Of a stretch of DNA of 64,000 nucleotides, positions 6,285-47,100 are shown in pieces (the first letter of the stretch is position 1; each line of letters begins with the position of its first letter). The position numbers and the translations under genes are program-made. The stretch is from an uncultured Elusimicrobia bacterium (GTDB lineage Bacteria; Elusimicrobiota; Elusimicrobia; FEN-1173), in the NCBI GenBank assembly GCA_964482515.1, contig CAYZXT010000006.1, positions 28,521 to 92,520 on the forward strand. Direction: 5' to 3'. The notes under the pieces are model-generated. The model was not told the DNA's origin and did no database searches. It saw only the letters and a list, made by a program, of their open reading frames with translations.

Positions 6285-9200
6285 TTAAGCGGAGGTCAAG
6301 AAAAGGCCAAGAGCCTTCAGTCCTTCTTGCAGGCTCTCAACCAGGCGGAAAATCGGCACCAGGACCACAACGTCCTTGTAGACGCCCAATTCGACCTGGT
6401 CCGAAGCGAAAATCACCGCATTTTTGGGATCCAATTGCCCCGCCTTTTCCAAGGCCGACAACAGCCTGTCCATCCTCAAGATCGCTCCGTCCAGAAGCGA
6501 CACTTCCGCGCGGGCCGAAGCAATGAGCGAGGGTCTCTCGCCGGCCAGGATGATCCGGATGTTGCCTTGGCGCAACAGGACGTCGTAGTCGCGCATGAAT
6601 TCCTCCCGGTCCCTGCCCGCATTGAAGGCTGCGTCCGCCGACATGCCTTGCCAGAAATCCGGAGAGGCTTGGCGCGGATCGCGCACGATCAGGGTCAAGG
6701 TGTTCGCCGTATCCCCGGCCGTTCCCGCATTATTGGCGACGAAGGCCGCCAGCAGTCCCGACACGGAGGCGCGCGCCGCGCCCTTCTTCATCACATCCGC
6801 CGGAACTTCAGCGAAGACGTCTTTGCCGCCCCTCATCCGCGCGGAAACTTTCGTGAAGACGACGCGTCCGGCGTATGCGGCCAGAATGTCACTCCGGAAG
6901 GTTTCATGGCCCCGCGGCGACCAAGCATCGCCCGGCGCGTTGTCGCCCAAAGACTCCAAAGCCCGCCCCAGGACATAAGCGGCCCCCCGGTCCCCGCCCC
7001 TTGCCGATTCCCGCGCCAAACCCTTGGTCAAGGCCCCGCGCAGAGCCGCCGGGTCGGGCGTTCCGTCCACAAAAGCGTTGCTGGCCAGTCTGATGTGAAT
7101 CCGCGGCAGGCCCAGGGCGTCCACCCCGAAATTCCGCGCCGGAGCGATGCCGCGCAGCCAGACGCGGGCCCGGTCGCGGAACCCCGACTCCTTCACATGC
7201 CAAGAATCATCGACGGCCACAGGGACCGGAACAACGGAAACCTCCGAAACCGAATCTTGCCGGGCGGATAGGATCGCGCGGAACGCCGCGGACAGAAGAG
7301 CGGAGAAGACCATCGCCAGAACAATCCCGCCGGCCACGCCGCCCGCAAGAGACCCCGCAAGGAAACCCAAAGATACCGGCAGGACCTGCGCCGCGAAATA
7401 GGCCCACCGCTCGCTCACCACGCCCAAGCCGTGCAGCGCCTCGTGCCCGGGCACGCCCAGGATATAAAGGCCGGCGCGGGACAACACCTTGAAAACGGGG
7501 TTTGAATGATAGACGAAATGGGCGAGGGAAGGATTCAGGACTAGCGCGTGTGTGTTCTTTTCAAATTCCAATAAATCGACGCCGGGCTCAACGCGGACCG
7601 AGCGGAACCCGAACAGGGGCGGCGCGCGACCGTCGGGGGTTTCATAGGCCGCTCCCGAACGCGCAGCCGCCGCCAAAACCAATCGGAGAATCCCCATCAG
7701 GACCAGCCCCGCCAGGGGCCAAGCCGCCGCCGCGCCCAGAGAGCTGGCCGCAAAACCGAAGGACGCGGCCAAAAACTGGGCGGACACCAGGAACGCCGCG
7801 GCCGCCACGCCGAACAACGCCGCCGCCCACAGCCCCTGCCGCCAGGTTTCCCGGGACACGGCCCTGCGCTCGATGTCCTCAAACAGCCTGTCATAAGCAT
7901 CCGACTCTCCTTCCGCTTCGAACCAATCGCGAACTTTTTTCAACGCGGCGGAACGATCCACCAGCGTTTCCAAAAGCCTATTCAGCAATTCGCTCCTTGG
8001 TCCATGGGCCGTCGGTTCCGATTGAGCGTCCCTCTCGCGCGATGAATACGCCTTCGCGGCGTCCTCATAACCCATTATGTCCGAAACTTTCCCATCATCG
8101 CCCACGAAGTACACTTGCACATACTCCGGAACCCGACATTTCAAAATAAAGTCCAACATGGCCTTTTTGGGAAACGCAGCATTCACTTTAATCGTGCACG
8201 GGACCGTGATCCCCGTGGTCAACTCGTTTAGGACGCGATGGATTATCAACCATTCCGATAGACCTTCTAAATTTATACTAATTACGGATGAATTATCCTC
8301 GACCCGCGTTTCCTCCTTCGACAACGATCTCATAAGGCCGCGAAGAGTTCCCATCATCTCCTCTGTAGGATTGGTTGGTTCACCAAATTTTCCGGACAAC
8401 GCCCAGGCATGGTCGTATTGCTTGGACCCGCTATCAACTATCAAGTCCTTTGGATTCGGATGGTGGAGGAACAAATTGACGATCATCGCCTCGGGAAATT
8501 GGCCGTCAGAGACAAAGACTTTATGCAGGGCCCGCAACCCAAAAAGAGGAGACAAATCCTTCACCCGGCTGGCCTCCAAGTGAAGTATCCCCAGACTGGG
8601 CAAGGACCCCATGCCTTCGAGGGGTTCCTGTCTTTGTCCCACATTGACCAGCAACCCGAATACATTTTTTTCCACCGTGGCTGAAGGGCCAAACAGGTCC
8701 CTCGCCCGCGTTACTTGGCTTTCGAGAGTGGGGAAGCGATCCTCAGCGGCCGGGGCCGGCGTCGCAATGGGCCCCATATCGGCGAACTCTTCCGGGTGCG
8801 CGCGGCGATAAGCGACAGCCTCGGGATAGGCTATTGTTCTGAACGATTTAAAAAATCCGATCTTGACGGCCTCGGGTCGAGGGGAACTTAAAATGATCCT
8901 CGACAGCACGGCTTCGGAAAATTGCCCTTCTTCGATAACTATTTTTAAATTCCTTACGTTAAGGTATTGAACCATTTTCAGCATGTCGGAACCCTTTATG
9001 CTCGCTCCGACAAAAAAAGTAAATTCCCCGAAGGATGACGGGTGAATGCTGCTCTCATTGGCGGCTGCGGGCCCGACTATTGCTTTCAGGTCATTCGACA
9101 ATTCCGCCGCAATCACAGAATCATTGTATGACGGAAAGATATGATCCATGCGATACGTCTTCTTACCTTTTCCCGATCTGGAAATTTCAGCAATAAAAGC

Positions 9201-12200
9201 CTTCGGCGCAGGACTATAATCCTGATAAAAACTCCTGATATCCTTTTTACGAAATTTCCCCTCTGGAATACTCATGGTTTTCAGCCCTCGTAATCCACTG
9301 AAAACCCTCAAGTCGGAAGGGCCATCCTCCTTAATAATGATCGATTCGATGCTCGGGCACTTCCTCCAAAGGACGTCCCAGGAAACCGCATAGTCCCGGT
9401 CAAGCATTAACTCCAGGGGACCATCATCACGCAAATGAACTTGATTTTCGCCGAAGGTGTCAACGAGAATCCGCCGCTGCTCCTCGATCGTGGGGAAGGG
9501 GTCCGGCGTATCTGCAGGCTGGACAGTCCGCTGCGCGGCGGGCGGCGTTGTCCCGGGCAACGCCATGAGGGAGAACTGCTTTGGGTGCGCGCGGTAATAC
9601 GCGACAGCCTCGGAATAACTCATTGAACGAGACTCCCCCTCATCGGATGAAAAGATAAAATGAACGTTCTCGGGCACGGGGGAAGTTAAAATAAAAAAGG
9701 TCATGAAAAATTCGTCGATTTGAAATCCTTCAGACATCAGAAAGACTTCTCTCATTTCAGAAAAGCCCGTCAGTACCCTCAATTCATCGACGCCCAGCCC
9801 TTGAGAAAGGCGAATGCGTAATTGCCACATATCCTGCATAAACTCCGCTGTCACAGAACTCATCATGTTGTGTCGCCCGAGTTTTTCCCTGATTATCGCC
9901 CTGACTTCCTTGAAGCCGGACCCTGGAATGAAGTCCGCCGCCGAAAACCATTTCATGCCTCCAGACGGATTGTCTGAATAAATACGGATCCTTCCAGAGT
10001 TTTCAGCTTCGCGATAAAACCTTTCAAGTTCCACTCGATGAAACCTCCCGGCTGGAAGCTGGATATTGCGCAGACCCCTTATCCCTTCATAAAAGTTAAT
10101 ACTGAGGGTGCCGTTTTCCCCGACAATTATCGTCCTAATGCTCGGGCAATGCTTCCAAAGGGATTCACACTCCCTATAAGGAAATAAATCTCTATCATCC
10201 ACAGTTAACTCCAAATCCCCGTTCCTATCCACCTTCACTTTTTCGGGCCCGAAGATATCAATGAGCGCTTCACGCTGCTCCTCGATCGCGGGGAAGGGGT
10301 CCGGCGTATCAGCAGGCTGGACAGTCCGCTGCGCGGCGGGCGGCGTTGCCCCGGGCAACGTGACGGTGAACTCCTCCGGGTGCGCGCGGCAATAGGCGAC
10401 AGCCTTGGAATAATCCATAAAACGGGGGGTCTCCCCTTGCATTATAATCTCCTGAATCTCCTCAATCGAGACGCCCTCGGGAAAAGGAGCGCTCAGAACG
10501 ATTCGGGCCATGTCGGCATCCGTAAATTGATCATGATCCACAAATATCAGGATACTCGCTCGACGAGAGTATTCCGTCATTTTCATTAAGTCGGGAACCG
10601 TCGCAACCTTCGTAGGTTTAATCTCATACTTACGAGATACCCCCAGACGAACATAAATATCACGCGTCAAGTGGGGCGGGACGAATTCTCGGCACGCCTC
10701 TTCCATCTCGGATATTAAATTTTCGTTGCTCAATCCAGGGGTGAAGGTGCTCGCCGAATAACTTTGTCTTACTATTTCTTCATCCCACACATGAACGACA
10801 ATTCGCATGGGATCATTTTCATTCCCAAAAAAAAGGCCGACGTCGTCATCAGAAAATTTTCCCGGTGGAATAAAAATGGTTCTCAGCCCTCTTAATCCAT
10901 TGAAAATCCTCAAGTCGGAAGGGCCATCCTCCCTGATAATGATCGATTCGATGCTCGGGCACTTCTTCCAAAGGGCGTCCCAAGAAACCTCGTAGTCCCG
11001 GTCAAGCGTTAGCCCCAGGTTACCGTGGAGAAGCAAACGAACTTGATTTTCGCCGAAGGTCTCAACAAGAATCCGCCGCTGCTCCTCGATCGTGGGGAAG
11101 TGACCGGAGGCATCCAATACATTATCGGGATAAACAGAATCAACCGGCGCCTCCTTCAAAACGGGCGCCCGTTCCCTGTCGCGGCGGGCGACGGCGTAAA
11201 TGTAAGCCGCTTCCACGCGGGACTGCAGTTCCCGCGCGCTCATGATGATGTAAGGCGCTTCTTTCAGATAGGCGGCCGCCTGGGGCTCGTCCAATGTCCC
11301 GGAAACAACAACCACCTCGAACCCCCTGTCCTTGAGGAAATGGACGAACTCGCCGGCGATGAGATTGCCCCCGTTGGCCGGCAGGCCGTGAACGAGCAAC
11401 GGCGGCCGGGTCGAAGCGGTGGGCATGCCACCGCGGCGGAACCCCCGCAAGGGATTGCGCAGGAACTTGGGGAGATAGAGCGTTCCGGTCCCGGGCGGGC
11501 CGAACTCCCGGCCCGGAGTCGCACGCCGCTGCACGAAAGCGGAAGCTTCCGCGTCAAGGAGGGATGAAACCGTCGTGCTTAATTCCTTCATTTTTGAATA
11601 TCGGGACTCCTCACTCAGAACGCTGGGGACAGGACGCGCCGATACGGATTCAGAGATCTGGACATCGTTATTGTCGTCGCGAGCCTTCGATTCATGAGCT
11701 CCCTCAATTCCATCGTATCGGGAGCCGACCGTTTCCGAGGCAACCCGACCAAACAATCCCGCCAGCCGACCCATTTGCGATATCCGGATCCGCCCAAGGA
11801 ACCCCAAAAATCGGGTCAACCGAGAATCTTCGGTTGAGACCCCTTCTGCCCTGGCCGCCGACAACTTGATCCCGCCATAAACCATGGACGCCAATAAACT
11901 GAGTCCGACAATAATAACCAGCGGAAGATAATTCGGCATTCCACGCAACAGCTCGGGTTCAGGAATTCTGGGAATCATTGCCGGAAGCGCCGAAGATCCC
12001 GAATTCGCGTGAACAACAAGAAGAGCCAGGATTCCCGAAGCCAAAAGGACCCCCGCGGCCAATGCCAGCCGCCTCATCCGAAATCGCGACCCGGCCGGCG
12101 CTTTATTCGATTTCAATTTAGCTTGCGCGATGGCCAATATCTTCGCTTTCCTCGCCGTCAAATCCTTGTCTCCGAGAAATCCCAGGGCCGTCAGAATCGA

Positions 12201-15200
12201 CCGGGGCGCCTTATTGTCGGTGAGCTGCGCGATTATTTCCCGAAGGCGCTCTTCGGAGGCCAGGGGCAAGTCATCTTCCATCAAACCGAGCTCATCGCTC
12301 AAACTCTTTAATATTTCGTTGCGCTGATCCTGCAAATCCTCAACGACGTCCTCCAGCGGCTCCTCTGGAACCGCCCGTTCCTCCATCTCGCGCGGCGGGC
12401 CGGACAGGTCCACCTCCCCGATACGACCAAGGACTTTCCCAACGTCAACACTCCCCGGCCGTGGCAAAACCGATTTTTCCTTGGGAGAACGAACCGGGAC
12501 GGCACCAAGGCTTAGGAACTCACCGTCCAATTTGATCCTCTGCATGGCTTTCAGGGCAAGGTATTGCCGGTAAAGAATTTCATCCTCCTCCAGGGTCTCC
12601 GGGATACCGTTTTGAAAAATCTCATCCACAACGTCCAAATGCCGCAGGGCCAAGGCAAACGGGTTGAGGTTTACTTCCCCATACCGCTCCAACCAAGCCG
12701 ACGCGGCCGCTTCCAATTGCGTTCGCGATATTTCCTTCCTTCCGTAGGCGATCAGGGCCAGTTGGAATATTTTCTTCGGCGCCAGGGAAAACAGCCCCTT
12801 CCAGTCACCGGCAATCCCCCTCTCCAAGTCGCGCTGAAAATAGACCGACTCATGGTCATTGTCTTGCGTTATGCTTCCGGGGAAATGTTGCCGCATTGCC
12901 CTTTTGTGACGCAGATCCTCCAAATCTTGATACACATCCTCAAAGGGGTCCGCCGGGGCCTGCAACCCCGCGAGCGAAAGAAAAAAATCCGGCGCCGAAG
13001 TGGGGGTAAGCCCCGCGAAATCCCGAGTGAATAACCCATGTCCGGCTTCATGCTCCAGGGTGTTCAACCAATCTTGGCCATCGAACTGGTCCTCCCTAAA
13101 AGCGATGTCCACCTTCTGCGCTTTGTAGGTCCCAGCTGCGGACTGCCCCGCGGGCTTGAGGCTGATTGTCACCGGCCGTTGGTGGACAGGAAGGATGAAT
13201 TGGGCGATGCGGCCGATGGCCTTCACTTTGTCCAGGCCGCTTCTGAACTCCAGGGAAGCAAGCGCCTTCCGGCCGGGCAATTCTTGCCCCCTCAGCATCC
13301 TCCGCAGATAGATGGGGCCGTACACCCTCTCCACGGCCTCTTCCGCCGAAACGCCCGACGCCGCCACGAGCAGGGCCCGCTTGAATTCCCGCGGCGTGGG
13401 CCGCTCCCGAGACCGCGGCAGGGCGTTCTGTATCCAAAGGTGCGCGCGGACGATGTAAGCCATGTCCTCGTCCGACAGGGCCGGGGCCTTCGTCCCGAAT
13501 TCCGTGACGATGTCCAAAGCGTATTCCGATAAGTCATCCTTGTCGTAATCCATCTCGCGGCGGAAGATCACCCGGTTCTGCAAGGCCGTGGAAAGCCTTT
13601 CGCGGCCGCTGAAGTCGGCCCCGTTGATCGTGGCGATGAACGCAAAACCCTTCGCGTCGGTGTTATCGTCGGTCAGCACGTCGTTCAGCTTCCCTTCCAA
13701 ATAGCCGCTGGGCAATACATCCAACTCGCTGACCACTAGAACGACCCCGTTCTCCTTGGCCCAAACTATGGCCTTCTCAAGCTCGTCGAACCGCGGCGAG
13801 GCGTTGATGTGGCAAAAGCTGCGCGGGCCCGGCGCGGCCGCCCCCGCCTTGACCGCCTCATAACCGCTCGACTCCAGAACCCGCACCACGGTCACGTCCT
13901 TGCCGCGGCCGGAGGCTCCCTCCAAAATCATTCCCCGCTTTCCCGCCGCAAGCCCGTTCCGTTTCATACGATATTCCCGCATGATGAGGAAATCTCCCAC
14001 CGCCGCGGCCAACCTCATCGTGGTGCGCGATAGGGTAAGGGCCCTCGACCTATACAATTGGGCCCCCTCGTTGCGCAGATCCTCTATCCAGGCGTTTTGG
14101 AGAGCCTCCGCGTCCACCGCGAATTTCAGGCGGAGCGCGTGCCGGAGCGCGACGCGGCCCTCCGGACTCAAGCTCGGCGAGAACATTTCCCACGCCGCAA
14201 GGAGCGCTTCTTCCACGATATTGCCGGATCCGCTCAGCACCTGCGCCCGGGCGGACAGTTCCTGGAGGTCGCGCAAAGAAATTCCCTGTCCCTCCTCCCA
14301 CCCCGCCACCCGGCGAACGGTCTCAAATACCCCGAGCAGCAGGGCCCGCAAGGCCGCCGCGTTCGGCGCATCCGGCGACACGTATTCTTCGAGCCTTTGC
14401 CGGAAAAACGCCTCGTCGAATTCAGGGAAGGCGACGGTGGGGACGTGCGGGGCGAGGAAATCCTGATACTTTCTGTCCTGCAGGGTTTCCTGGTTCCCGG
14501 TGAAAACGACCTTCTTGCCCTCCATATCGATCTTGCGCCCTTCGATCCACATGTAGGGGGTTTCCCCTTCTCCCACGAACAGCCCCCCGAAGAACCGCCA
14601 AAAATCCGGCCGCGCCAGGTTCGCTTCGTCCAGGACCAGCAGCGCCGGCCCATCGTGCAAAGCCCAGCGCGTGATGTCGGCGAACGCGGAGGCCCTGCCG
14701 GTCTCATCGTCGTTCGAGTCCTGTTCCTGGGCGTCCACCCCGATCGTCACGGGCCCGAACATCCGCAGCCCCAGCGCGTCCGCCAAACCTTTTGCCGCAA
14801 AGCTTTTTCCCGTCCCGGGAGACCCTTTCAGGAACACCGCCGGGGATTTTGCCAATATTCTCCGCACCCGCCCCAAACGTTTATCCCAACTTTCCTCGAC
14901 CGGGCCGGCCTTGTCGTTGATGGAAGGAGCTTGATCAACGGACGCGTTCGCCTTTCGGAAAAGGGCGCGGTAGAAACCCTCCCGGTCATCGCCCAGGTGC
15001 GCCGCGATCAGCGCGTCCTGAATCAGCTCGAGCGCCCTCCCGGCGCCCGCGCGATCAAAACTTTCGGGCACGCCGGCTTCGTCCAACAAATCCAGGCTGA
15101 GGGTATCCGCGAATTCCCAAAAACGGTCCTTCCATGTGGCGGGAGCGACGATCTTGTTCATCGCCGCTTTCAGTTTCGGCCCATGAATGCTCCTCCCAGT

Positions 15201-18200
15201 CAGCCCCGCCTCCTTCGGCCGAAATGTCCGCCGCGCCGCCGTCCGCAGAAACGCGGCCACGTTCGGATCGTCCGCGTAATCGTCAAGATAAACGTCCTCA
15301 AAGGCCCGCATCCAATCCAGCGTGCCATCGGGGTTTCGAGCCTGGCGGCACAGGAGCCGGAGGCGTCCCAGGCTGAAATCCGCCCGAGCCGGATAGAGCC
15401 CGCGCCGCGCCGGCGGAGGGACCGTCTCGAAAGCCCTTCTCAAGGAGAGCACCTTCTCAATATCGCTTTCCGTGAGAGCTCCACTGAATTCGCGCTTCAA
15501 TTCCTCCACTATGTCCCGCACGGAAATGTCCAACACGGCGCGGTGAAGAACCGAGACGCCGGCGCCGCTCCCGATATGAGAAAGAAGGATCAAGCGTCCC
15601 GTTAAAACGTTTTCCCCTTTGCCGGCGAAGGGACGGACCTCGCCGTTCACCACGAGATAGGGATTTTCATGCAAAGCCGTTTCCAACTGGCGCAGGAGAT
15701 CCGGATTGGATTCCATCCCCGCCAAAACGACGGTTTCTCCCCGTTCCAAGGCCTCCAACACCTGCCTCTTGACCGCCCGCAAACGCCCCCCCGGCAACAG
15801 CTCGCTCGCCATCGATAGATCGTCCAGGATGGTCGCCGGCGTGACCGGATAAACAAGGGGGGGCTGGCCGTTCCGTTCGGAGACGTCCCGCATGATCCGC
15901 GCCAACAGGCCGGACGGGTCCGATCCTTCAACGAGCGACACCCGCCGGTCCCGCGCCATTTCCCACGACTCCGGATCCGGGGCCCTGGTCCGGCGGACCG
16001 CCGGCAGCATTCCACGATAACGCAACGGGACCTCCACGCCGACGCCCAATTCAATTTCCAATTCGCCGCCCATATGCAAAAGACGGTGCCACAGCGACTC
16101 CGGAATTTCCGGATCGGTTATAAGGACCCGGAGACGCCCTCCGTCCGCGCCCATCCGCTCCAGCAATCCCGCGCCCTGGGACAACGTCCCCTGGGAATCG
16201 ATGCGGGTGAACTCAAACAGCTGGTGCTGCGTTTCCCGGTTCAAGACCCACGCGCGCTCCGCCGGCCAGGCGGTCTCGCCCGCCGGCACGACCCGTTTAT
16301 TCTCCAAGGCGCGCCGCCCGTAGCCGCCCTCCGCCCAATGGACGGAAAAACCTTCCCGCGCCGCCACCCATTTTCCGTTGGAAAGGATCCCGCCGTTCAA
16401 GAGGGCCTGCCGGACCATGTGGGACAACCGGGTGTTGGGGATTCCCTGCTCATCTCGCCACACGCCCCCTTGGATCAAGAGGGGCCGCCCTTCCCTCATG
16501 GCCCGGACGAGTGCGCCCTCTTCCCAGCGCACGCTTCCGTTGGGCAGAAGCCGGTAGCGCGCGACCAGCGCATCCTTAATATCGATGTCGTCGGACTCGA
16601 AAAGTTCCGCGCGCAGGCCGTTGAAAGCCTCCGGATCGTCGACCTGGGACAAACCTTCCAGCGGATCCGCGTAATCCGCGTCCGCTTGGAATTCCCCGGT
16701 CAGGGAGCGTGAATAAAAATCAACCGAAAATTCACGCAGCTGGTCCTCCCGCACCGCCCCAACGATGCGGAGCGACGGAGAGGCCTTAACGCCCAAATAC
16801 TCCGGAGAGTCCCCGAACAGCTGATTGAATCCCGCCACGGTCTTTGGGTCGGAATTCGTGTAGTCCAGGAACAACACGCCGCCCCGCTCGATCAATTGAA
16901 GCAAGGGGCTTTTCGCCTCCCCAAACCGGCCGTTTATCACGCGCGCGGGATTGAGCAAATCATCCAAATCGGTGTCATCCCGCAGGGTCAGCCGCAAATA
17001 CGGAATGTTTCCGTTCGCGGCCACGATTTCCCTTAGCCGCACATCCAATGCCTCCACATCCCGGGGCGTATTCACGAAGGTCAACCCGCGACCTTCGTTC
17101 AATAGATCGGTCAGGCTCGGATCGGCCCACGGCGAACCCATCGTCATCGGGAAACGGCGGAATATTTTGTTCCACCCCGTGTGGACGGCAACGGCCAGAA
17201 CAAAGCCGATCACCATGGCCAGGAGGGAGTAAAGCGGTCCATCGAACCCGGACAGGAACAACCGGGGCGCGGCGAGGGCGGCGAGGTTGAATAAGACAAC
17301 GGCGAAAAGGCGGACGGCGAAATCAACGGGGGATTTATTTTCATGGCGGAAAACGAAAGACGCCTGGTGCGCGGCGTAATAAACCGCCGCCACCAGCCAG
17401 AACGACATGACTATCGCCAAAAGCAGCGGATTCGCCTCCAGCAACACAGCCTTCAAATTCCATGCCGCCATCAGGATGAGGCCAGGCGCGCGGCCCATCC
17501 AAAAGGCGCGCCAGCGCGTCAACGTCGGCTGCCCCCGCGCTTCGATTTCCTTCCGCGCCGAAGCGGCGGGAGCCAGGCCCGCTTCTTCAATCACGGAATA
17601 GCCAAGCAGCTTGTGACTGATCATAGGATTCCTCAGCCACTCCGGCGCATGCTTGACCGCATTTTCGTAATAGGCCTTCGTGCTCGACAGGATCAGCGAG
17701 CGGCTTCCCCACAGGTTTTTCCACCAAGGAACGCTCAACCTCCGCGGCGGACTGAACCTCACCGACTGAAAGGAATCAGCGCCTCCCACGGGGAATTCGG
17801 CGACCACCGACGGCGCGCCCGGTCGCGCAATCAACAAGCCGTTCTCTCCGAACCCGATACTCCACCCCCACCACGCCTTGGCTTTCTCAATCAGCGCGCG
17901 AAGATTTTTACGCCTTTCACCTGAGGGAAGTTTGTTTTCCCTCCACCGCGCCTGGCTGCCCTCAACAGTGGCGGCCAAGGCGTTCGCCTTCACGGCGAAA
18001 TCATGGGCCTGGATCCTTCGCTGGAAGGGTTCGGCCAACCGCCGAATCAGCCCCGGCGAGGTAAACCGTGCGAAGATCAGGGAGATGGGTTCTCCGGCGA
18101 AAATTTTCTCGATGGGGAGTGGATCGCGGGAGAAGATGTCCATGTAATTTTTGGCCTGATCGATGTTTTCCACCTTTGGCGTGACGACGACGTAAGACGC

Positions 18201-19853
18201 ATTCTTCCGCCGCCAAAGCGCCGTCATACCCTCGGTGTGGAACCCGCCGGTCACCAGGACGGCGGAGGTTTGCTTTTCTTCTTTCATTTTCCTGAGCAGG
18301 TTTTCGGTGAGGGCTTCATTGCGGGCCAAAGCCAGACGGCAGAAATCTTCGAACGGTTTCAGCAATTCCGCGCGTATGGCGGGAAAAGCCGGAGAGCCCG
18401 ACGACAGAGAGCGGGCCCGGTCCGCCATGTTGAGGATCAACGGGCGTCGTTCCGTATAATCGGCCCAATGCCGCGGCGTCATTTCCGTGCGGAGCAATTT
18501 CGTCAGCAGGGCCTGGTCGCGTCCCAACCCCGCCAGTTCCTTTTGCGCCGGCTCAAAAGTGAGCCCGGCTTCGACTGTTTTTTCCATCCGTTCCAACTCG
18601 TCCAACAACTTGTCCCGGTTTATGCGCTCCGCGGACTGGACGTAGGTCATATAATCGGACAACTGCGGATAGCCGGTCAGGTCGATGTTCTTTTCCCGGC
18701 AAAGATCGCGCATATACGCGTAATATTCCCCGTAGCTCCTTTGACCGGCGCGGTACTCGACGCTCGCCCGCACCAGTTCATCCAGGGACTCCCGGCTCAG
18801 TCGCGATACCAGGCGATCGATCAAATCAAGCCGCTCGCGTTCCACCTTTTTGAAATCCAGTTTTTTCTCCCACCGGATCGCCCGGGACAACAGGGCCACG
18901 TTGGGATAGGCCCCGGCATCCGCGCGGGAGGAAAGAAAATCCACGTAAGCGCCCAGCCCTGTTTTACCCGCCTGGAAAGTTTGATAGAAGCGGTCGAACT
19001 CCTTGAGCCCGGGCGAATAAATTTTTTCTTTCAGACCGCTCACGGCCTCGGCCAGACCCGAGAGGAACTCCTCCGCTTCCCTCCGGCGGTCCTGGGCCGA
19101 GAGCACCGCGCGGGTGTTGTCGGCGTAAAGGTCGCCCGTCTCCACGCCCCAGAGGAGCGGCGCGACCTCCGACACCAACCCCAAATATTCCGCACCGCCC
19201 ACGTATCCTTCCTCCAGGAAATAGTCCGCGAGCTGTTGGTTCATTTCTTTCCCGGCCTCGGGCAGGGCCTTGTATTTTTCCATCTCGAAGTAGCCCTCGG
19301 CGCCCTCCAACCCCACGAGCTTCACCCCGCGCCCATCCTTCAGTCCCTGCAGGATGCGGGCGATGTTCTTTTGCGCGTCGTAGGCGCCATGGATGTCTTG
19401 AATGTGGATGATGAGGGGCGAATCCGATTTAGCCAAATGGATTTCCCGGACGCTTCCATAGGGCAAGACCAATCGGGAAAGCCAAGCGGGAACAATCCCG
19501 TTCTTGGCCCACTTCACGTTTTCAGAGAGGTCATGGGCGGACAAGGGAGCCAGAGATGGGGCGAGGGTGGATCCGTTCAGGGTTTCGGGAAGTCCCAGCG
19601 GGATTTGGCCGGTGGGAAGCTGGGCGAGGAGTTGATAGTCCCGGGATGAAAGACTGTTCGCGCGGCCCGGGTTATTTTGCGCCGAAGAGCGGGATACGGA
19701 TCTTCGTTCCTCCCAAAAGTTCGCCTCGGCCAAGGGCGATGCGACCGTTGAATAAAATAACAAGGCGCAGAGGGCGGCGGCGAGGCTCTTTTTGCTCGGT
19801 CCTTGCGCGCTGAAAGGCCTGAAAATCGAGCGGGTTCGGCGGATTATATCCAT
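6285..19853 (-). CDS. giant multidomain membrane protein (4522 aa). It combines a signal peptide, a TIKI/TraB-like N-module, transmembrane clusters, AAA+ ATPase modules, HExxH motifs, an alpha/beta-hydrolase motif, 4 LRR-like tandem repeats and a C-terminal transmembrane region
   Basis: A single uninterrupted 13,569-nt ORF, open even through the low-GC stretch (8100-11100) where stops would be frequent by chance. It shows coding-like amino-acid composition throughout. The ATG at 19853 follows an AT-rich spacer. The N-terminus has a hydrophobic signal-like segment (LAAALCALLFYSTVASPLAEA). Confidence 0.85.
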   Translation of the reverse strand: MDIIRRTRSIFRPFSAQGPSKKSLAAALCALLFYSTVASPLAEANFWEERRSVSRSSAQNNPGRANSLSSRDYQLLAQLPTGQIPLGLPETLNGSTLAPSLAPLSAHDLSENVKWAKNGIVPAWLSRLVLPYGSVREIHLAKSDSPLIIHIQDIHGAYDAQKNIARILQGLKDGRGVKLVGLEGAEGYFEMEKYKALPEAGKEMNQQLADYFLEEGYVGGAEYLGLVSEVAPLLWGVETGDLYADNTRAVLSAQDRRREAEEFLSGLAEAVSGLKEKIYSPGLKEFDRFYQTFQAGKTGLGAYVDFLSSRADAGAYPNVALLSRAIRWEKKLDFKKVERERLDLIDRLVSRLSRESLDELVRASVEYRAGQRSYGEYYAYMRDLCREKNIDLTGYPQLSDYMTYVQSAERINRDKLLDELERMEKTVEAGLTFEPAQKELAGLGRDQALLTKLLRTEMTPRHWADYTERRPLILNMADRARSLSSGSPAFPAIRAELLKPFEDFCRLALARNEALTENLLRKMKEEKQTSAVLVTGGFHTEGMTALWRRKNASYVVVTPKVENIDQAKNYMDIFSRDPLPIEKIFAGEPISLIFARFTSPGLIRRLAEPFQRRIQAHDFAVKANALAATVEGSQARWRENKLPSGERRKNLRALIEKAKAWWGWSIGFGENGLLIARPGAPSVVAEFPVGGADSFQSVRFSPPRRLSVPWWKNLWGSRSLILSSTKAYYENAVKHAPEWLRNPMISHKLLGYSVIEEAGLAPAASARKEIEARGQPTLTRWRAFWMGRAPGLILMAAWNLKAVLLEANPLLLAIVMSFWLVAAVYYAAHQASFVFRHENKSPVDFAVRLFAVVLFNLAALAAPRLFLSGFDGPLYSLLAMVIGFVLAVAVHTGWNKIFRRFPMTMGSPWADPSLTDLLNEGRGLTFVNTPRDVEALDVRLREIVAANGNIPYLRLTLRDDTDLDDLLNPARVINGRFGEAKSPLLQLIERGGVLFLDYTNSDPKTVAGFNQLFGDSPEYLGVKASPSLRIVGAVREDQLREFSVDFYSRSLTGEFQADADYADPLEGLSQVDDPEAFNGLRAELFESDDIDIKDALVARYRLLPNGSVRWEEGALVRAMREGRPLLIQGGVWRDEQGIPNTRLSHMVRQALLNGGILSNGKWVAAREGFSVHWAEGGYGRRALENKRVVPAGETAWPAERAWVLNRETQHQLFEFTRIDSQGTLSQGAGLLERMGADGGRLRVLITDPEIPESLWHRLLHMGGELEIELGVGVEVPLRYRGMLPAVRRTRAPDPESWEMARDRRVSLVEGSDPSGLLARIMRDVSERNGQPPLVYPVTPATILDDLSMASELLPGGRLRAVKRQVLEALERGETVVLAGMESNPDLLRQLETALHENPYLVVNGEVRPFAGKGENVLTGRLILLSHIGSGAGVSVLHRAVLDISVRDIVEELKREFSGALTESDIEKVLSLRRAFETVPPPARRGLYPARADFSLGRLRLLCRQARNPDGTLDWMRAFEDVYLDDYADDPNVAAFLRTAARRTFRPKEAGLTGRSIHGPKLKAAMNKIVAPATWKDRFWEFADTLSLDLLDEAGVPESFDRAGAGRALELIQDALIAAHLGDDREGFYRALFRKANASVDQAPSINDKAGPVEESWDKRLGRVRRILAKSPAVFLKGSPGTGKSFAAKGLADALGLRMFGPVTIGVDAQEQDSNDDETGRASAFADITRWALHDGPALLVLDEANLARPDFWRFFGGLFVGEGETPYMWIEGRKIDMEGKKVVFTGNQETLQDRKYQDFLAPHVPTVAFPEFDEAFFRQRLEEYVSPDAPNAAALRALLLGVFETVRRVAGWEEGQGISLRDLQELSARAQVLSGSGNIVEEALLAAWEMFSPSLSPEGRVALRHALRLKFAVDAEALQNAWIEDLRNEGAQLYRSRALTLSRTTMRLAAAVGDFLIMREYRMKRNGLAAGKRGMILEGASGRGKDVTVVRVLESSGYEAVKAGAAAPGPRSFCHINASPRFDELEKAIVWAKENGVVLVVSELDVLPSGYLEGKLNDVLTDDNTDAKGFAFIATINGADFSGRERLSTALQNRVIFRREMDYDKDDLSEYALDIVTEFGTKAPALSDEDMAYIVRAHLWIQNALPRSRERPTPREFKRALLVAASGVSAEEAVERVYGPIYLRRMLRGQELPGRKALASLEFRSGLDKVKAIGRIAQFILPVHQRPVTISLKPAGQSAAGTYKAQKVDIAFREDQFDGQDWLNTLEHEAGHGLFTRDFAGLTPTSAPDFFLSLAGLQAPADPFEDVYQDLEDLRHKRAMRQHFPGSITQDNDHESVYFQRDLERGIAGDWKGLFSLAPKKIFQLALIAYGRKEISRTQLEAAASAWLERYGEVNLNPFALALRHLDVVDEIFQNGIPETLEEDEILYRQYLALKAMQRIKLDGEFLSLGAVPVRSPKEKSVLPRPGSVDVGKVLGRIGEVDLSGPPREMEERAVPEEPLEDVVEDLQDQRNEILKSLSDELGLMEDDLPLASEERLREIIAQLTDNKAPRSILTALGFLGDKDLTARKAKILAIAQAKLKSNKAPAGSRFRMRRLALAAGVLLASGILALLVVHANSGSSALPAMIPRIPEPELLRGMPNYLPLVIIVGLSLLASMVYGGIKLSAARAEGVSTEDSRLTRFLGFLGRIRISQMGRLAGLFGRVASETVGSRYDGIEGAHESKARDDNNDVQISESVSARPVPSVLSEESRYSKMKELSTTVSSLLDAEASAFVQRRATPGREFGPPGTGTLYLPKFLRNPLRGFRRGGMPTASTRPPLLVHGLPANGGNLIAGEFVHFLKDRGFEVVVVSGTLDEPQAAAYLKEAPYIIMSARELQSRVEAAYIYAVARRDRERAPVLKEAPVDSVYPDNVLDASGHFPTIEEQRRILVETFGENQVRLLLHGNLGLTLDRDYEVSWDALWKKCPSIESIIIREDGPSDLRIFNGLRGLRTIFIPPGKFSDDDVGLFFGNENDPMRIVVHVWDEEIVRQSYSASTFTPGLSNENLISEMEEACREFVPPHLTRDIYVRLGVSRKYEIKPTKVATVPDLMKMTEYSRRASILIFVDHDQFTDADMARIVLSAPFPEGVSIEEIQEIIMQGETPRFMDYSKAVAYCRAHPEEFTVTLPGATPPAAQRTVQPADTPDPFPAIEEQREALIDIFGPEKVKVDRNGDLELTVDDRDLFPYRECESLWKHCPSIRTIIVGENGTLSINFYEGIRGLRNIQLPAGRFHRVELERFYREAENSGRIRIYSDNPSGGMKWFSAADFIPGSGFKEVRAIIREKLGRHNMMSSVTAEFMQDMWQLRIRLSQGLGVDELRVLTGFSEMREVFLMSEGFQIDEFFMTFFILTSPVPENVHFIFSSDEGESRSMSYSEAVAYYRAHPKQFSLMALPGTTPPAAQRTVQPADTPDPFPTIEEQRRILVDTFGENQVHLRDDGPLELMLDRDYAVSWDVLWRKCPSIESIIIKEDGPSDLRVFSGLRGLKTMSIPEGKFRKKDIRSFYQDYSPAPKAFIAEISRSGKGKKTYRMDHIFPSYNDSVIAAELSNDLKAIVGPAAANESSIHPSSFGEFTFFVGASIKGSDMLKMVQYLNVRNLKIVIEEGQFSEAVLSRIILSSPRPEAVKIGFFKSFRTIAYPEAVAYRRAHPEEFADMGPIATPAPAAEDRFPTLESQVTRARDLFGPSATVEKNVFGLLVNVGQRQEPLEGMGSLPSLGILHLEASRVKDLSPLFGLRALHKVFVSDGQFPEAMIVNLFLHHPNPKDLIVDSGSKQYDHAWALSGKFGEPTNPTEEMMGTLRGLMRSLSKEETRVEDNSSVISINLEGLSEWLIIHRVLNELTTGITVPCTIKVNAAFPKKAMLDFILKCRVPEYVQVYFVGDDGKVSDIMGYEDAAKAYSSRERDAQSEPTAHGPRSELLNRLLETLVDRSAALKKVRDWFEAEGESDAYDRLFEDIERRAVSRETWRQGLWAAALFGVAAAAFLVSAQFLAASFGFAASSLGAAAAWPLAGLVLMGILRLVLAAAARSGAAYETPDGRAPPLFGFRSVRVEPGVDLLEFEKNTHALVLNPSLAHFVYHSNPVFKVLSRAGLYILGVPGHEALHGLGVVSERWAYFAAQVLPVSLGFLAGSLAGGVAGGIVLAMVFSALLSAAFRAILSARQDSVSEVSVVPVPVAVDDSWHVKESGFRDRARVWLRGIAPARNFGVDALGLPRIHIRLASNAFVDGTPDPAALRGALTKGLARESARGGDRGAAYVLGRALESLGDNAPGDAWSPRGHETFRSDILAAYAGRVVFTKVSARMRGGKDVFAEVPADVMKKGAARASVSGLLAAFVANNAGTAGDTANTLTLIVRDPRQASPDFWQGMSADAAFNAGRDREEFMRDYDVLLRQGNIRIILAGERPSLIASARAEVSLLDGAILRMDRLLSALEKAGQLDPKNAVIFASDQVELGVYKDVVVLVPIFRLVESLQEGLKALGLFLTSA
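7250..7830 (-). other. C-terminal transmembrane helix cluster of giant protein 1, containing HExxH motif 2 (VPGHEALHGLG, about 7420-7440)
   Basis: Hydrophobic runs LWAAALFGVAAAAFLVSAQFLAASFGFAASSLGAAAAWPLAGLVLMGIL and VLPVSLGFLAGSLAGGVAGGIVLAMVFSALLSAAF. HEALH was read from the reverse complement of 7421-7460. Confidence 0.55.
8650..11860 (-). repeat. four tandem intragenic repeat units of about 800 bp (about 265 aa, LRR_5/BspA-like core) inside giant gene 1
   Basis: Protein repeats share AVAY-RAHP ... PAAQRTVQPADTPDPFP-IEEQR ... W--CPSI-SIII-EDG-SDLR-F-GLRGL--I-IP-GKF. At the DNA level there are near-identical cores, e.g. 9466-9560 vs 10256-10350 (about 95% identity over about 95 bp) and 9255-9470 vs 10865-11100 (about 85%). 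The region is markedly lower in GC than its flanks. Confidence 0.8.
11340..11430 (-). other. alpha/beta-hydrolase (lipase/esterase)-like N-terminal motif
   Basis: PPLLVHGLPANGGNLIAGEFVHFLKDRGFEVVVV resembles the start of lipase/PGAP1-like alpha/beta hydrolases (hhhhHGhxGxxxxF...L...G). Confidence 0.35.
13030..13050 (-). other. HExxH motif 1 (LEHEAGHGLF), a possible zincin-type metal-binding site
   Basis: Read directly from the reverse-complement translation of 13021-13096 (DWLNTLEHEAGHGLFTRD). Confidence 0.4.
13690..13915 (-). other. second, degenerate AAA+-like module
   Basis: MILEGASGRGKDVTVV (Walker A-like GxxGxGK), VVLVVSELDVL (Walker B-like hhhhSELD), FAFIATINGA (sensor-1-like), ALQNRV. 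Confidence 0.55.
14600..14840 (-). other. AAA+ ATPase module (dynein/MoxR/midasin AAA_5-like) with canonical Walker A and B
   Basis: Walker A FLKGSPGTGKSFAAKGL (about 14800-14835), Walker B PALLVLDEANLARPDFW (about 14610-14650), then VVFTGNQ (sensor-1-like). Confidence 0.75.
17150..17500 (-). other. transmembrane helix cluster 1 of giant protein 1
   Basis: Hydrophobic runs LILMAAWNLKAVLLEANPLLLAIVMSFWLVAAVYYAA, FAVRLFAVVLFNLAALAAP and LYSLLAMVIGFVLAVAV. Confidence 0.6.
17990..19853 (-). other. shared N-terminal module of giant protein 1 (about 620 aa), putatively TIKI/TraB/GumN-like
   Basis: Motifs LIIHIQDIHGAYDAQ, LVGLEGAEG and VLVTGGFHTEGMTAL...YVVVTPKV are collinear with giant protein 2 (LVVLVQDAHEIYSAQ, LIGLEGAAG, VIVVGGFHAPAIEKL...VVTVTPKV). 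Confidence 0.55.
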
Positions 19854-39845: not shown

Positions 39846-40250
39846 TCACTCCCAAATGGGCGCGTGCCACAGCGCCTCCATGAGCCAGCGCACCTCGGAA
39901 TCGCACAGCACCATCTCCGAGTAATCCGGCTTTCCCTCATCGTTCATGTAAGAAAGCGCCACGGTGACGTCCCGGTGTTTTTCCGCGTTCTTGTTCTTGG
40001 ACCAATCCGCGGACACGCACAGCAGGCCGTAGGGGACGTCCAAATGGGACCGCCACGCGGCTTCCTGGCAGGGGCCCTGGCAGGTCAGGCCCTTATGACG
40101 GGCCGACTCTTGGCCCTTCCGCGGGGCCTTGCCGGTCATCCCGGCGGCCTCGCAGATGGAAGCCAAAAAACTGTCCAGTTTCTTTTTGCTGATACGGGGA
40201 CCGACTTTCCGCTTTCCTTTGTTCTTTCGGTCTTCGTGTTCCTGTTCCAT
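39846..40250 (-). CDS. hypothetical Cys-rich protein
   Basis: 134-aa ORF directly upstream of the SEC-C gene. No recognisable motif. Confidence 0.4.
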   Translation of the reverse strand: MEQEHEDRKNKGKRKVGPRISKKKLDSFLASICEAAGMTGKAPRKGQESARHKGLTCQGPCQEAAWRSHLDVPYGLLCVSADWSKNKNAEKHRDVTVALSYMNDEGKPDYSEMVLCDSEVRWLMEALWHAPIWE

Positions 40251-43907: not shown

Positions 43908-44116
43908 ATTAACATTTTCGACACCTTATCGCTAGGGCTCGACGCCAGTCGTGACCCCGGCATGCAATCTTATCGATGACGAAGCGGATTAATTTACATT
44001 ATTGTTACAATCACTTAACGCCCCGTTAAGACGGTCCCGCTACAATGACGGCTCATCCGCAACCTATATAACCTTCTCAACCATTGCACATCCAACTCAG
44101 CAAGGGGAATGAACCA

Positions 44117-47100
44117 ATGGCATCAAAACCGGTTTTCAACGCACGCAAATCCTGTTTGACCCGCTCGGTCGCCGCCGGGACGGCGCTCCTGTTCCTGGGA
44201 TCGACCGTCCTCTCCCCTTGGGCCGAAGCGAGTTTCTGGCAGGACCGGCGGAAAGCCGTCGAGTCATCGCAGCGTGACCCCGAAGCCGCGCAACAGTTCG
44301 CCCAACTCCCCCGGGCGCTTTCCGATTTGAACGGCGCCCTCCCGCGGGTCGCGAATTCCTTCCCCGACCGCCAAGCCCTCACCGACATTCCCTCCGTCCA
44401 AACGGACGGCATTTCCCGCAAAGACGTAGAACATCTGCCGTCGTGGCTGACCTCCCTTCCCGCGACCTACGGCGACATCCAGAAAATACGCCTGGTTACC
44501 CGGCCGGAAGAACATCCCCTCGTCGTCTTGGTGCAGGACGCCCATGAAATTTATTCCGCCCAGCTCAACATCTCGCACGTTCTGGAACACCTGGATAAAA
44601 ATTCCCAGGGCCAACGGCTGCTGATCGGGCTGGAAGGCGCCGCGGGGCCGCTCGATCTTAAAACTTACCGCCGATCCGCCGACCGCCGCCGCCAGGCCAT
44701 CGTTTCGGACGTCCTGCTCGAGACGAAACTGCTGAGCGGACCGGAACATTTCGGCTTCACGGCGGAGCGCGAACCCCGGATGCTGGGCGTCGAAACGCCT
44801 ACGCTCTACATCGAAAACGTCCAGGCCTATCAGGAATTGCTCCCCAGGAAAGACGCGTTCAAGGAACAGCTCTCCGCCTTCGATTTTTCCCTGAAACCGG
44901 CCAAAGATAAATTCTTCAGCCTCACGCTCTGGGCCCTGGACGAAAACATCGCCTCCTACCACAAAGGGTCCCTCGACCTCCTGCATTACGTGAAGTTTCT
45001 GTCCAAACAGGTCGAGCTCGGAAAGGATTTCCCGGAAACCCGCCAATTGCTGGACGTCCTGGCGCTCGAGGATTCCCTGGATTTCAAGGCCGTGGAAAGC
45101 GAGCGCCTCCAGCTCGTTAAAATACTCTCCCACCGCCTGGACAAGGCGGCGCTCAACGGTTTATTGCAGGCCAGCCTCGCCTACAAAATGGGGCGCATAT
45201 CCTACGGCGCGTACCACGAACACCTCCGCATCCTGACCCGGAACGCCGGCGTCGACCTCTCCCGCTTCCCCGGGTTCAACGTCTACATCCAGTACGTTCT
45301 GCTGTCGGAAAAAATCGACAAGTACACGTTGTTCGACGAAGTCAACGCTCTCAAAGAAACCGTCGTGGACCGTCTGGGGTCCAGCCAGGGCCAAAAAGAA
45401 CTGCTTCGCCTTTCCGAGGACATCCGCCTGCTGGAAAGTTTGTCGGAACAACAGTTCGGCCCCACCGAGTGGGAGCGATACTCGGCGCGGCGCGATGAAA
45501 TCCTGCGCATCCCGCAGCGCATCGCCGCGTTGTCCCATGACGCGCAGCCGTCGCCTTCGGCGGTCGCGTCGTTCCAGGAAACGCTCCCCCTGTTTGAACG
45601 TTTCTACCGCGCGGCCGACGCCCGCAACGGCGCCCTGATCGGGAACCTTCTCGAAGGCATGCAGCCCGCCGCGTCCGGACAAACGGCGGCCGTGATCGTG
45701 GTCGGCGGTTTCCACGCGCCCGCGATCGAAAAACTCCTGGGCGACAAAAACATTTCCGTCGTCACGGTCACGCCCAAGGTCGGCCCCGTCGACAAAGCGT
45801 CCCGCTATCTGGACGTTTTCGCGCTGAAGCACGTCCCGTTGGAGAAAATGTTCCTGGGCGAAAAGCTTTACATGGCGCCCGTGCGATTGACGGGCACGAA
45901 CGAGGCGATGGCGGCGATCCAACCAGCGAGAACAACCGATGATTTGAAGCGGGTCTATCTGACCTACGATTATATTCTCGACCAGCTGGGAGAGACCGGG
46001 AGAAAAATCAAGGCGTTCGGGGATCTCGACAAACACATCGAGTCAACTTTTGATCGCGCCCACGGCGTATGGTTCTTCAAGGTCCTAATGCCGGATGGGA
46101 GCAACCCAATTTATCTTTGCGGAGCGGAAACGGCAGGCGCCCGCGAAAAAGTAATCTCCGCTCTTGGTTATGCCCCAAGCGGTTTGAAATGGAAAATCGA
46201 CAAGCAGGAAGACGATATTGCGCTCGTCATCATTTCCGATCGAGCGGCCGAGAAATACCCCTTCTTACAGGCAAAACCATCCCTGACTTCCTGGGTCAAG
46301 GACGCGGTGGATTTCCTGCGCCAGCCGCCCACGGTCGCCGTGGCGGGTTTTGTCGCCGTCACCGCTTTAGTCGCTCAATACGCCATTGTCATTCTCGGCT
46401 TGGGAGTTCCGGCAGCTTTGATGATGGGAATGGCGTGGGGCGTCATTGTTCCCGTCCTTATCATTCTTATGGGCCAGTTGCCGCGATTCGCGCGAATGCC
46501 GGCTTTCGCTCCGGCAATGATGCGCGCCTCGAACAACTCACAACAACCGGAGGAGGTTTCCCCGAGCGCCCCGCTTTTCATGCAGTCCACCTCCCAGGGC
46601 GGAAAATCGGCAGTTAACGCTAATTCAACGGAAGAAACCCGCGCCATCAAGGCCTGGATCAGGGAGCAATTGGATTTAATGTCGGAGGAATTAGGCAAAA
46701 CCCCGGACACCTATGAGGAGATCCTGCGTCACAGCGACGAGGCTCTGACGGCTATCGCCCAACGGATCATCGACGGTACGTTAAACCGGCATGCAGCCAT
46801 CAACGTGGACCCAGACGCGCCCCCGGTCAAGACGACGGACGAGGAACTGAACATCGGCGTTTACGCGGTGGCCGCAAACCCTCTGCACTGGGGCCATATC
46901 CTGCTCGCTCTCGACGCCGTCGCCTATCACGGCGTGGACCAGGTAGTGTTCATCCCGCAGGGCGAAGACGAACGCAAACCCGACCTCGACAAGCTGAACA
47001 CCGAGCAGCGGCACGAAATCGTTCCGGCCGTCTTGGCCAATTTCGCGCCATTCTTTAAATATTCCCCCCTCGGGCTCGGTAACAAATACGACGGCGAAAC

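Follow-up and report, generated by a model that had tools for sequence, protein, structure and literature searches.

A segment of about 1,180 residues (aa 930–2115) in a giant protein encoded in the window, the whole stretch of 64,000 nucleotides analysed here, probably consists of some six fused AAA_5-type modules, most likely forming one asymmetric single-chain ring. The protein is the product of a 4,522 aa open reading frame with an ATG start (6285–19853, minus strand), and all of its features described below lie on that minus strand. The first-pass annotation had described two AAA+ modules, one canonical and one degenerate, and had suspected further degenerate cores upstream. All of the motifs it quoted fall in this same reading frame, and the span it covered (13690–14840) corresponds to aa 1672–2055, beginning at the module 5 Walker A and ending at the module 6 Walker B, with the sensor-1 (ATIN) and arginine motifs of module 6 lying just beyond. 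Both modules are borne out by the location of their motifs and by AAA_5 homology, and more cores are indeed present upstream, although the count comes to about six rather than two plus a possible few: five modules have profile homology, and the sixth (M3) is recognized from its secondary-structure pattern. Modules 5 and 6 come last in the conserved cassette and hold the only two P-loops of the giant protein.

The genes adjoining the giant open reading frame encode enolase, phosphoglucomutase, a glycolate-oxidase-like protein and ComEC. A tRNA-His call elsewhere in the window (40065–40137, anticodon ATG) looks spurious. An identical protein from an NCBI source (P0003) is present, without a name, in the public representative library.

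Homology and layout of the AAA modules

The pattern G....GK[STD] occurs twice in the giant protein against a mean of 0.17 copies per composition-preserving shuffle; two or more copies were seen in 1.2% of shuffles, and the pattern followed by a Walker-B-like strand 45–70 aa downstream in none of 2,000. These counts, together with the full or near-full invariance of the P-loop and Walker motifs across 40 aligned homologues (23–42% identity), exclude a chance origin of the motifs. Pfam AAA_5 (PF07728) matches the whole protein with 40.5 bits (E 3.4e-10; gathering cut-off 22 bits) and aa 1662–2112 with 25.3 bits. In all seven relatives compared, AAA_5 ranks first for the module 5–6 region (best E 6.5e-14), and in the relative P0001 the module 6 equivalent is matched over the full profile, positions 2–139 of 139, placing the second P-loop-like motif in a real AAA module. 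Profile–profile comparison of M5 with M6 by hhalign gives 97.5% (E 7e-12). These matches support assignment of both P-loop modules to the AAA_5 (dynein/midasin/MoxR) type. This branch is marked by a helix-2 insert and a pre-sensor-1 beta-hairpin, for which the secondary structure of the model offers candidates, with a beta-hairpin ahead of the Walker-B strand in M1–M4 and a hairpin ahead of strand 4 in M2, M4 and M5. Dynein-specific Pfam families gave nothing significant on the module 5–6 region (AAA_7, E 0.3). STAND and other P-loop classes were rejected because the nSTAND3, AAA_16 and AAA_22 matches span the P-loop only and are below their cut-offs, and since NCBIfam and PADLOC returned no matches the protein is neither a named family nor a known defence system.

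Modules 1 to 4 are all without a P-loop, and three of them (M1, M2 and M4) have AAA_5 homology. The P-loop-less aa 940–1450 score 33.4 bits with Pfam AAA_5, which is also matched in eight of ten relatives, and aa 930–1200 score 21.1 bits with the best stretch at aa 1094–1127, in module 2. Module 1 (aa 948–1060; 16674–17012) has an AAA-like alpha/beta core with a Walker-B-like strand VLFLDY (aa 993–998) in which D997 is conserved, and a motif SFYSRF in which R1049 is present in 40 of 40 cassettes; its profile aligns with that of M4 (96%, E 4e-9) and of M5 (84%). Module 2 (aa 1076–1195; 16269–16628) has an AAA_5-like core with LLIQGG at the Walker-B position, within GRPLLIQGG (aa 1122–1130), and aligns with M4 at 94.6%. 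Module 4 (aa 1300–1445; 15519–15956) likewise has an AAA_5-like core, in which the Walker-B position of GETVVLAGMES is VVLAGMES, followed by NPDLLRQLE; its aa 1320–1405 fall on positions 15–101 of the 139 in the AAA_5 profile, and it aligns with M5 at 94.6% (E 7e-8). The upstream cores suspected on the strength of GRPLLIQGG and GETVVLAGMESNPDLL (aa 1372–1387) are thus found in modules 2 and 4. Single-sequence BLAST between modules was uninformative, and profile–profile comparison was needed.

Module 3 (aa 1198–1295; 15969–16262) is alpha/beta and the most degenerate, with a strand RLRVLIT and a conserved W1255. Even under relaxed hhalign settings its profile shows no significant similarity to those of the other modules, its alignments with M1 and M2 being in register at a probability of 22–38%. 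In the structural model its strand, hairpin, helix, strand, helix succession matches that of M1, M2 and M4, and on this pattern it is probably the sixth AAA module. The stretch joining modules 4 and 5 (aa 1446–1667; 14853–15518) has no match in a Pfam scan and is all-helical in the model (residues 516–740, pLDDT mostly 85–94). Family-conserved arginines are present only in M1 (R1049), in M5 and its lid, and in M6; there are none in M2–M4.

The two nucleotide sites

Module 5 (aa 1668–1815; 14409–14852) has a canonical AAA_5 core, with Walker A GSPGTGKS (aa 1677–1684, window 14802–14825; K1683), Walker B LLVLDE (D1742, E1743) within LLVLDEANLA (aa 1738–1747, window 14613–14642), and sensor-1 FTGN (N1787). 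The arginine signature sought after the sensor-1 asparagine was GR...L(S/P).A(L/F).(N/D)R(F/V); module 5 has R1794 and is missing the second arginine. All 40 cassettes have G1677, G1682, K1683, D1742, E1743, T1785, N1787 and R1794, and also R1861 and R1869 of the helical lid and extension that follow (aa 1816–1968; 13950–14408; model residues 885–1035), where SLRDLQELSAR is sensor-2-like. Since every catalytic element is present (Walker A lysine, Walker B aspartate and glutamate, sensor-1 asparagine and lid sensor-2 arginine), module 5 is likely to be the main ATPase.

Module 6 (aa 1969–2105; 13539–13949) has an AAA_5 core with a conserved but deviant nucleotide site. Module 5 fits both GxxxxGK[ST] and hhhhDE, whereas module 6 departs from both, with Walker A GASGRGKD (aa 1979–1986, window 13896–13919; K1985, D1986) and Walker B VLVVSE (S2042, E2043), of which VVSELD is at aa 2040–2045 (window 13719–13736). 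Sensor-1 ATIN (N2077), within ATING (aa 2074–2078, window 13620–13634), and the GR...NR arginines (R2084, R2094) form ATIN...SGRERLSTALQNRV, with N2077, R2084 and R2094 conserved. The lid and connector beyond (aa 2106–2225; 13179–13538) are helical (residues 14–106 of a second model) and carry a conserved H.W.R...PTTRE...VYGP.YL in the alignment consensus.

In a family-wide census of the last Walker A residue, the Walker B aspartate position and the catalytic glutamate position of module 6, GKD goes with S-E in 97 cases and with another non-aspartate residue plus E in 21, the canonical GKS goes with D-E in 15, and the mixed states are GKS with S-E (5) and GKD with D-E (1). In more than 100 sequence clusters GKD/hhhhSE and the canonical GKS/hhhhDE thus vary as pairs, with the catalytic glutamate almost always kept. 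The earlier description of this module as degenerate is right in that the site deviates from the canonical one, but as read from these alignments the site is not decaying; it is a conserved, rewired pair. The change from serine or threonine to aspartate in Walker A and from aspartate to serine in Walker B would swap the Mg2+-coordinating positions, leaving the P-loop lysine, the catalytic glutamate and sensor-1 intact, and module 6 presumably still binds nucleotide, as a slow or regulatory site. No earlier description of an aspartate in place of the Walker A serine or threonine was found in the literature consulted, from which many subscription papers were missing.

Structural model, membrane setting and the HExxH domain

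An AlphaFold model of the 1,200-residue cassette, built from a 31-sequence alignment, is confident (pLDDT 85.2, pTM 0.84) and contains six alpha/beta units in its secondary structure. The best structural matches of this model are dynein and midasin, which agrees with the concatenated dynein- or midasin-like arrangement proposed in the first-pass annotation. With Foldseek against the PDB, dynein motor domains fill all of the best 50 places (E 2.5e-21 to 1e-18, TM-scores 0.40–0.45). Sequence identity to dynein is 12–14%, and 700–785 residues align with single-chain dynein rings in a global superposition that is only moderate; midasin aligns over 594 residues at 3.9 Å, and the best single-module matches are the bacterial MoxR proteins CbbQ and NorQ. 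When the module 5–6 profile was compared with all PDB sequences, the best five were all midasin (E 3e-15 to 6e-14, a lead owed partly to scores summed over the six modules of midasin), with the module 6 part aligning to midasin AAA modules, and Cdc48 came next (E 2e-5). A profile of modules 1–4 gave nothing significant in the same sequences (NorQ, E 2.4), and a single-sequence search with the cassette gave nothing useful.

The single-chain ring has to be weighed against two other arrangements. One is that only modules 5 and 6 are functional and assemble as a type II homo-hexameric double ring, the upstream part being an unrelated substrate-binding or scaffold domain. Two tandem modules are common in AAA+ machines such as p97, ClpB and NSF, there are only two P-loops in the protein, and the D2 module of Cdc48/p97 is among the generic AAA matches in the PDB profile search. 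We nevertheless find this arrangement very unlikely: the P-loop-less upstream region is itself AAA_5 (33.4 bits, and the profile–profile scores of 84–96%), the monomer model is compact, the 700–785 residues aligned with single-chain dynein rings go far beyond what two modules could give, and a scaffold alone would hardly account for the invariant R1049 of module 1. The other has the six modules in an open arc, a spiral or a bundle of two layers, with M1–M4 a rigid platform and M5–M6 a two-site nucleotide switch, not a motor, controlling the HExxH domain described below or signalling across the membrane. Modules 1–3 are unusually small in the model (about 100–120 aa) and lack their own lids, dynein superposes on the model only moderately well overall, and the non-canonical site of module 6 could bind without hydrolysing, all of which would fit such an arc. 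However, the catalytic glutamate, sensor-1 and arginine residues are conserved in both sites, the alignment with midasin implies at least three to four modules in ring-like geometry, and R1049 fits a closing M6–M1 interface, and we regard the open arc as unlikely.

The setting of the cassette follows from the hydrophobic segments found in a Kyte-Doolittle scan. A hydrophobic helix, a signal or anchor (aa 24–42), precedes an N-terminal domain (aa 43–790; 17484–19727) that is predicted to be periplasmic; it is weakly Tiki/ChaN-like (Pfam Cofac_haem_bdg, E 0.0063, below cut-off) and has motifs IQDIHG...GLEG...GGFH that are kept in the alignment consensus of relatives. A paralogous copy of this domain is encoded by the open reading frame at 44084–49825. 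A cluster of three transmembrane helices (aa 808–893; 17175–17432) comes next, in line with the membrane anchoring mentioned in the first-pass annotation, and the cassette starts about 40 aa past a transmembrane helix. By the positive-inside rule the K/R-rich exit NKIFRRF after the three helices would put the cassette in the cytoplasm, anchored by them. A transmembrane hairpin (aa 2596–2662; 11868–12068) ends the cytoplasmic segment, which comprises the cassette and an HExxH domain.

The HExxH domain (aa 2226–2452; 12498–13178) lies directly after the cassette and its connector, and an HExxH occurs 140–170 aa past the cassette in 27 of 39 relatives. It contains HEAGHG (H2268, E2269, H2272) and then QDLEDLRH (E2312, D2313, R2315), and all six of these residues are invariant in the domain alignment. 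It has no match among Pfam families or PDB sequences. Its model (pLDDT 81.4) has a three-stranded sheet, an HExxH helix and a helix bearing the glutamate, and its fold matches, all weak, are to minigluzincins (E 0.2–1, probability up to 0.99). The domain is predicted to be a zincin/gluzincin-like catalytic core, with E2312 as candidate third zinc ligand, and is a putative peptidase.

Were the six modules to close into a ring, modules 1–4 would be structural members that have lost their P-loops, and ATP would presumably be turned over at modules 5 and 6. The arginine finger for the module 5 site would come from module 6 (R2094), and that for module 6 may be the invariant R1049 of module 1, acting across the ring-closing interface. 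Held at the membrane by the three helices before it and the helical hairpin after it, such a ring would most likely convert ATP turnover into rigid-body movements, which may reshape a protein substrate bound to it or control whether that substrate reaches the neighbouring putative metallopeptidase. The logic would be like that of FtsH, though built on a single-chain ring of the dynein/midasin style.

Distribution, known systems and origin

An exhaustive search of representatives recovered 873 cluster representatives at E<=1e-3, of which 98 reached E<=1e-30, with the whole cassette spanned in about 40 proteins of 2,000–7,700 aa. This search was needed to find the family: a word-indexed homologue search with a 1,371-aa cassette gave two distant relatives only, and one with a compact module alignment gave no homologues. 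Giant proteins without annotation in Planctomycetes, Elusimicrobia and Omnitrophota carry the cassette, as do proteins of Endozoicomonas and Legionellales, and cluster look-ups gave family members no name beyond "hypothetical protein". No earlier description of bacterial multi-AAA, dynein- or midasin-like proteins turned up in the literature consulted, again with many subscription papers missing.

MoxR proteins (CbbQ, NorQ, RavA) assemble as homo-hexamers of single-module chains and work with a VWA partner, in contrast to the fusion of about six different modules here. A VWA protein is the usual co-factor of MoxR and midasin, and neither the whole-protein Pfam scan nor the immediate neighbour genes showed one. 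As in FtsH, a membrane-anchored cytoplasmic AAA+ unit directly precedes an HExxH domain, in this case a putative zinc peptidase, although FtsH has one classical-clade AAA module per chain, an M41 peptidase and a homo-hexameric assembly; neither of the FtsH Pfam families (classical AAA, M41 peptidase) was detected in the giant protein, and the resemblance is one of analogy, not homology.

Dynein, midasin and RNF213, all of them eukaryotic proteins, are known to form rings of six different AAA modules on a single chain, and to our knowledge this fused design has been described so far only in eukaryotes. Midasin (Rea1/Mdn1) has P-loops in all six of its modules, which are much larger than those of the bacterial cassette with its P-loops in two. 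The ~1,700-aa linker of midasin, its D/E-rich region and its C-terminal MIDAS/VWA domain went undetected in the bacterial protein; midasin is also nuclear and soluble, unlike this membrane-anchored protein with its HExxH domain. The cassette is without the coiled-coil stalk, microtubule-binding domain, strut and N-terminal linker or tail of dynein (the longest helices in the model are about 22 residues), and the order of modules is reversed, with degenerate ones first and active ones last. RNF213 (mysterin), also a giant protein, has six AAA units in its dynein-like core, functional Walker motifs in two adjacent units only, and a fused enzymatic effector module (PMC7311170), and the bacterial protein probably resembles it in each of these respects.

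Dynein and midasin have been derived from bacterial MoxR ATPases with a single module, through a fusion placed "early in eukaryotic evolution" (PMC3495828). Transfer of a eukaryotic midasin-like gene to host-associated bacteria, where it shrank and spread, would account for midasin being the best sequence match among solved structures and for one clade in the eukaryote-associated Endozoicomonas, Sansalvadorimonas and Legionellales that is fused to eukaryote-like LRRs. Such an origin is nonetheless highly improbable in our judgement, as the family has its greatest breadth and divergence among free-living or uncultured lineages (Planctomycetes, Elusimicrobia, Omnitrophota, Auribacterota and Margulisbacteria), its modules are far more compact than those of midasin, the protein has no MIDAS/VWA domain in the Pfam scan, and its best single-module structural matches are to bacterial MoxR proteins. 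A bolder proposal, which we consider unlikely as it stands, is that the six-module AAA_5 ring fusion pre-existed in bacteria, that the planctomycete, elusimicrobial and omnitrophotal family is sister or ancestor to midasin and dynein rather than a separate fusion, and that GKD/SE is a functional, undescribed form of Mg-ATP coordination.

With a widespread, unannotated bacterial family of this layout to compare, phylogeny could show directly whether there was one fusion event or more than one, and to which domain of life the fusion belongs. The cassette would also be a compact model, of ~1,200 residues and with two nucleotide sites, of an asymmetric AAA ring that is much easier to study than dynein, and the exchange of the Walker A serine or threonine and the Walker B aspartate, co-varying across more than 100 clusters, is a natural experiment in P-loop chemistry. 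Membership of the family marks out the very large membrane proteins from Planctomycetes, Elusimicrobia and Omnitrophota as candidate ATP-driven machines rather than passive surface proteins, and the same goes for the LRR-bearing proteins of Endozoicomonas and Legionellales.

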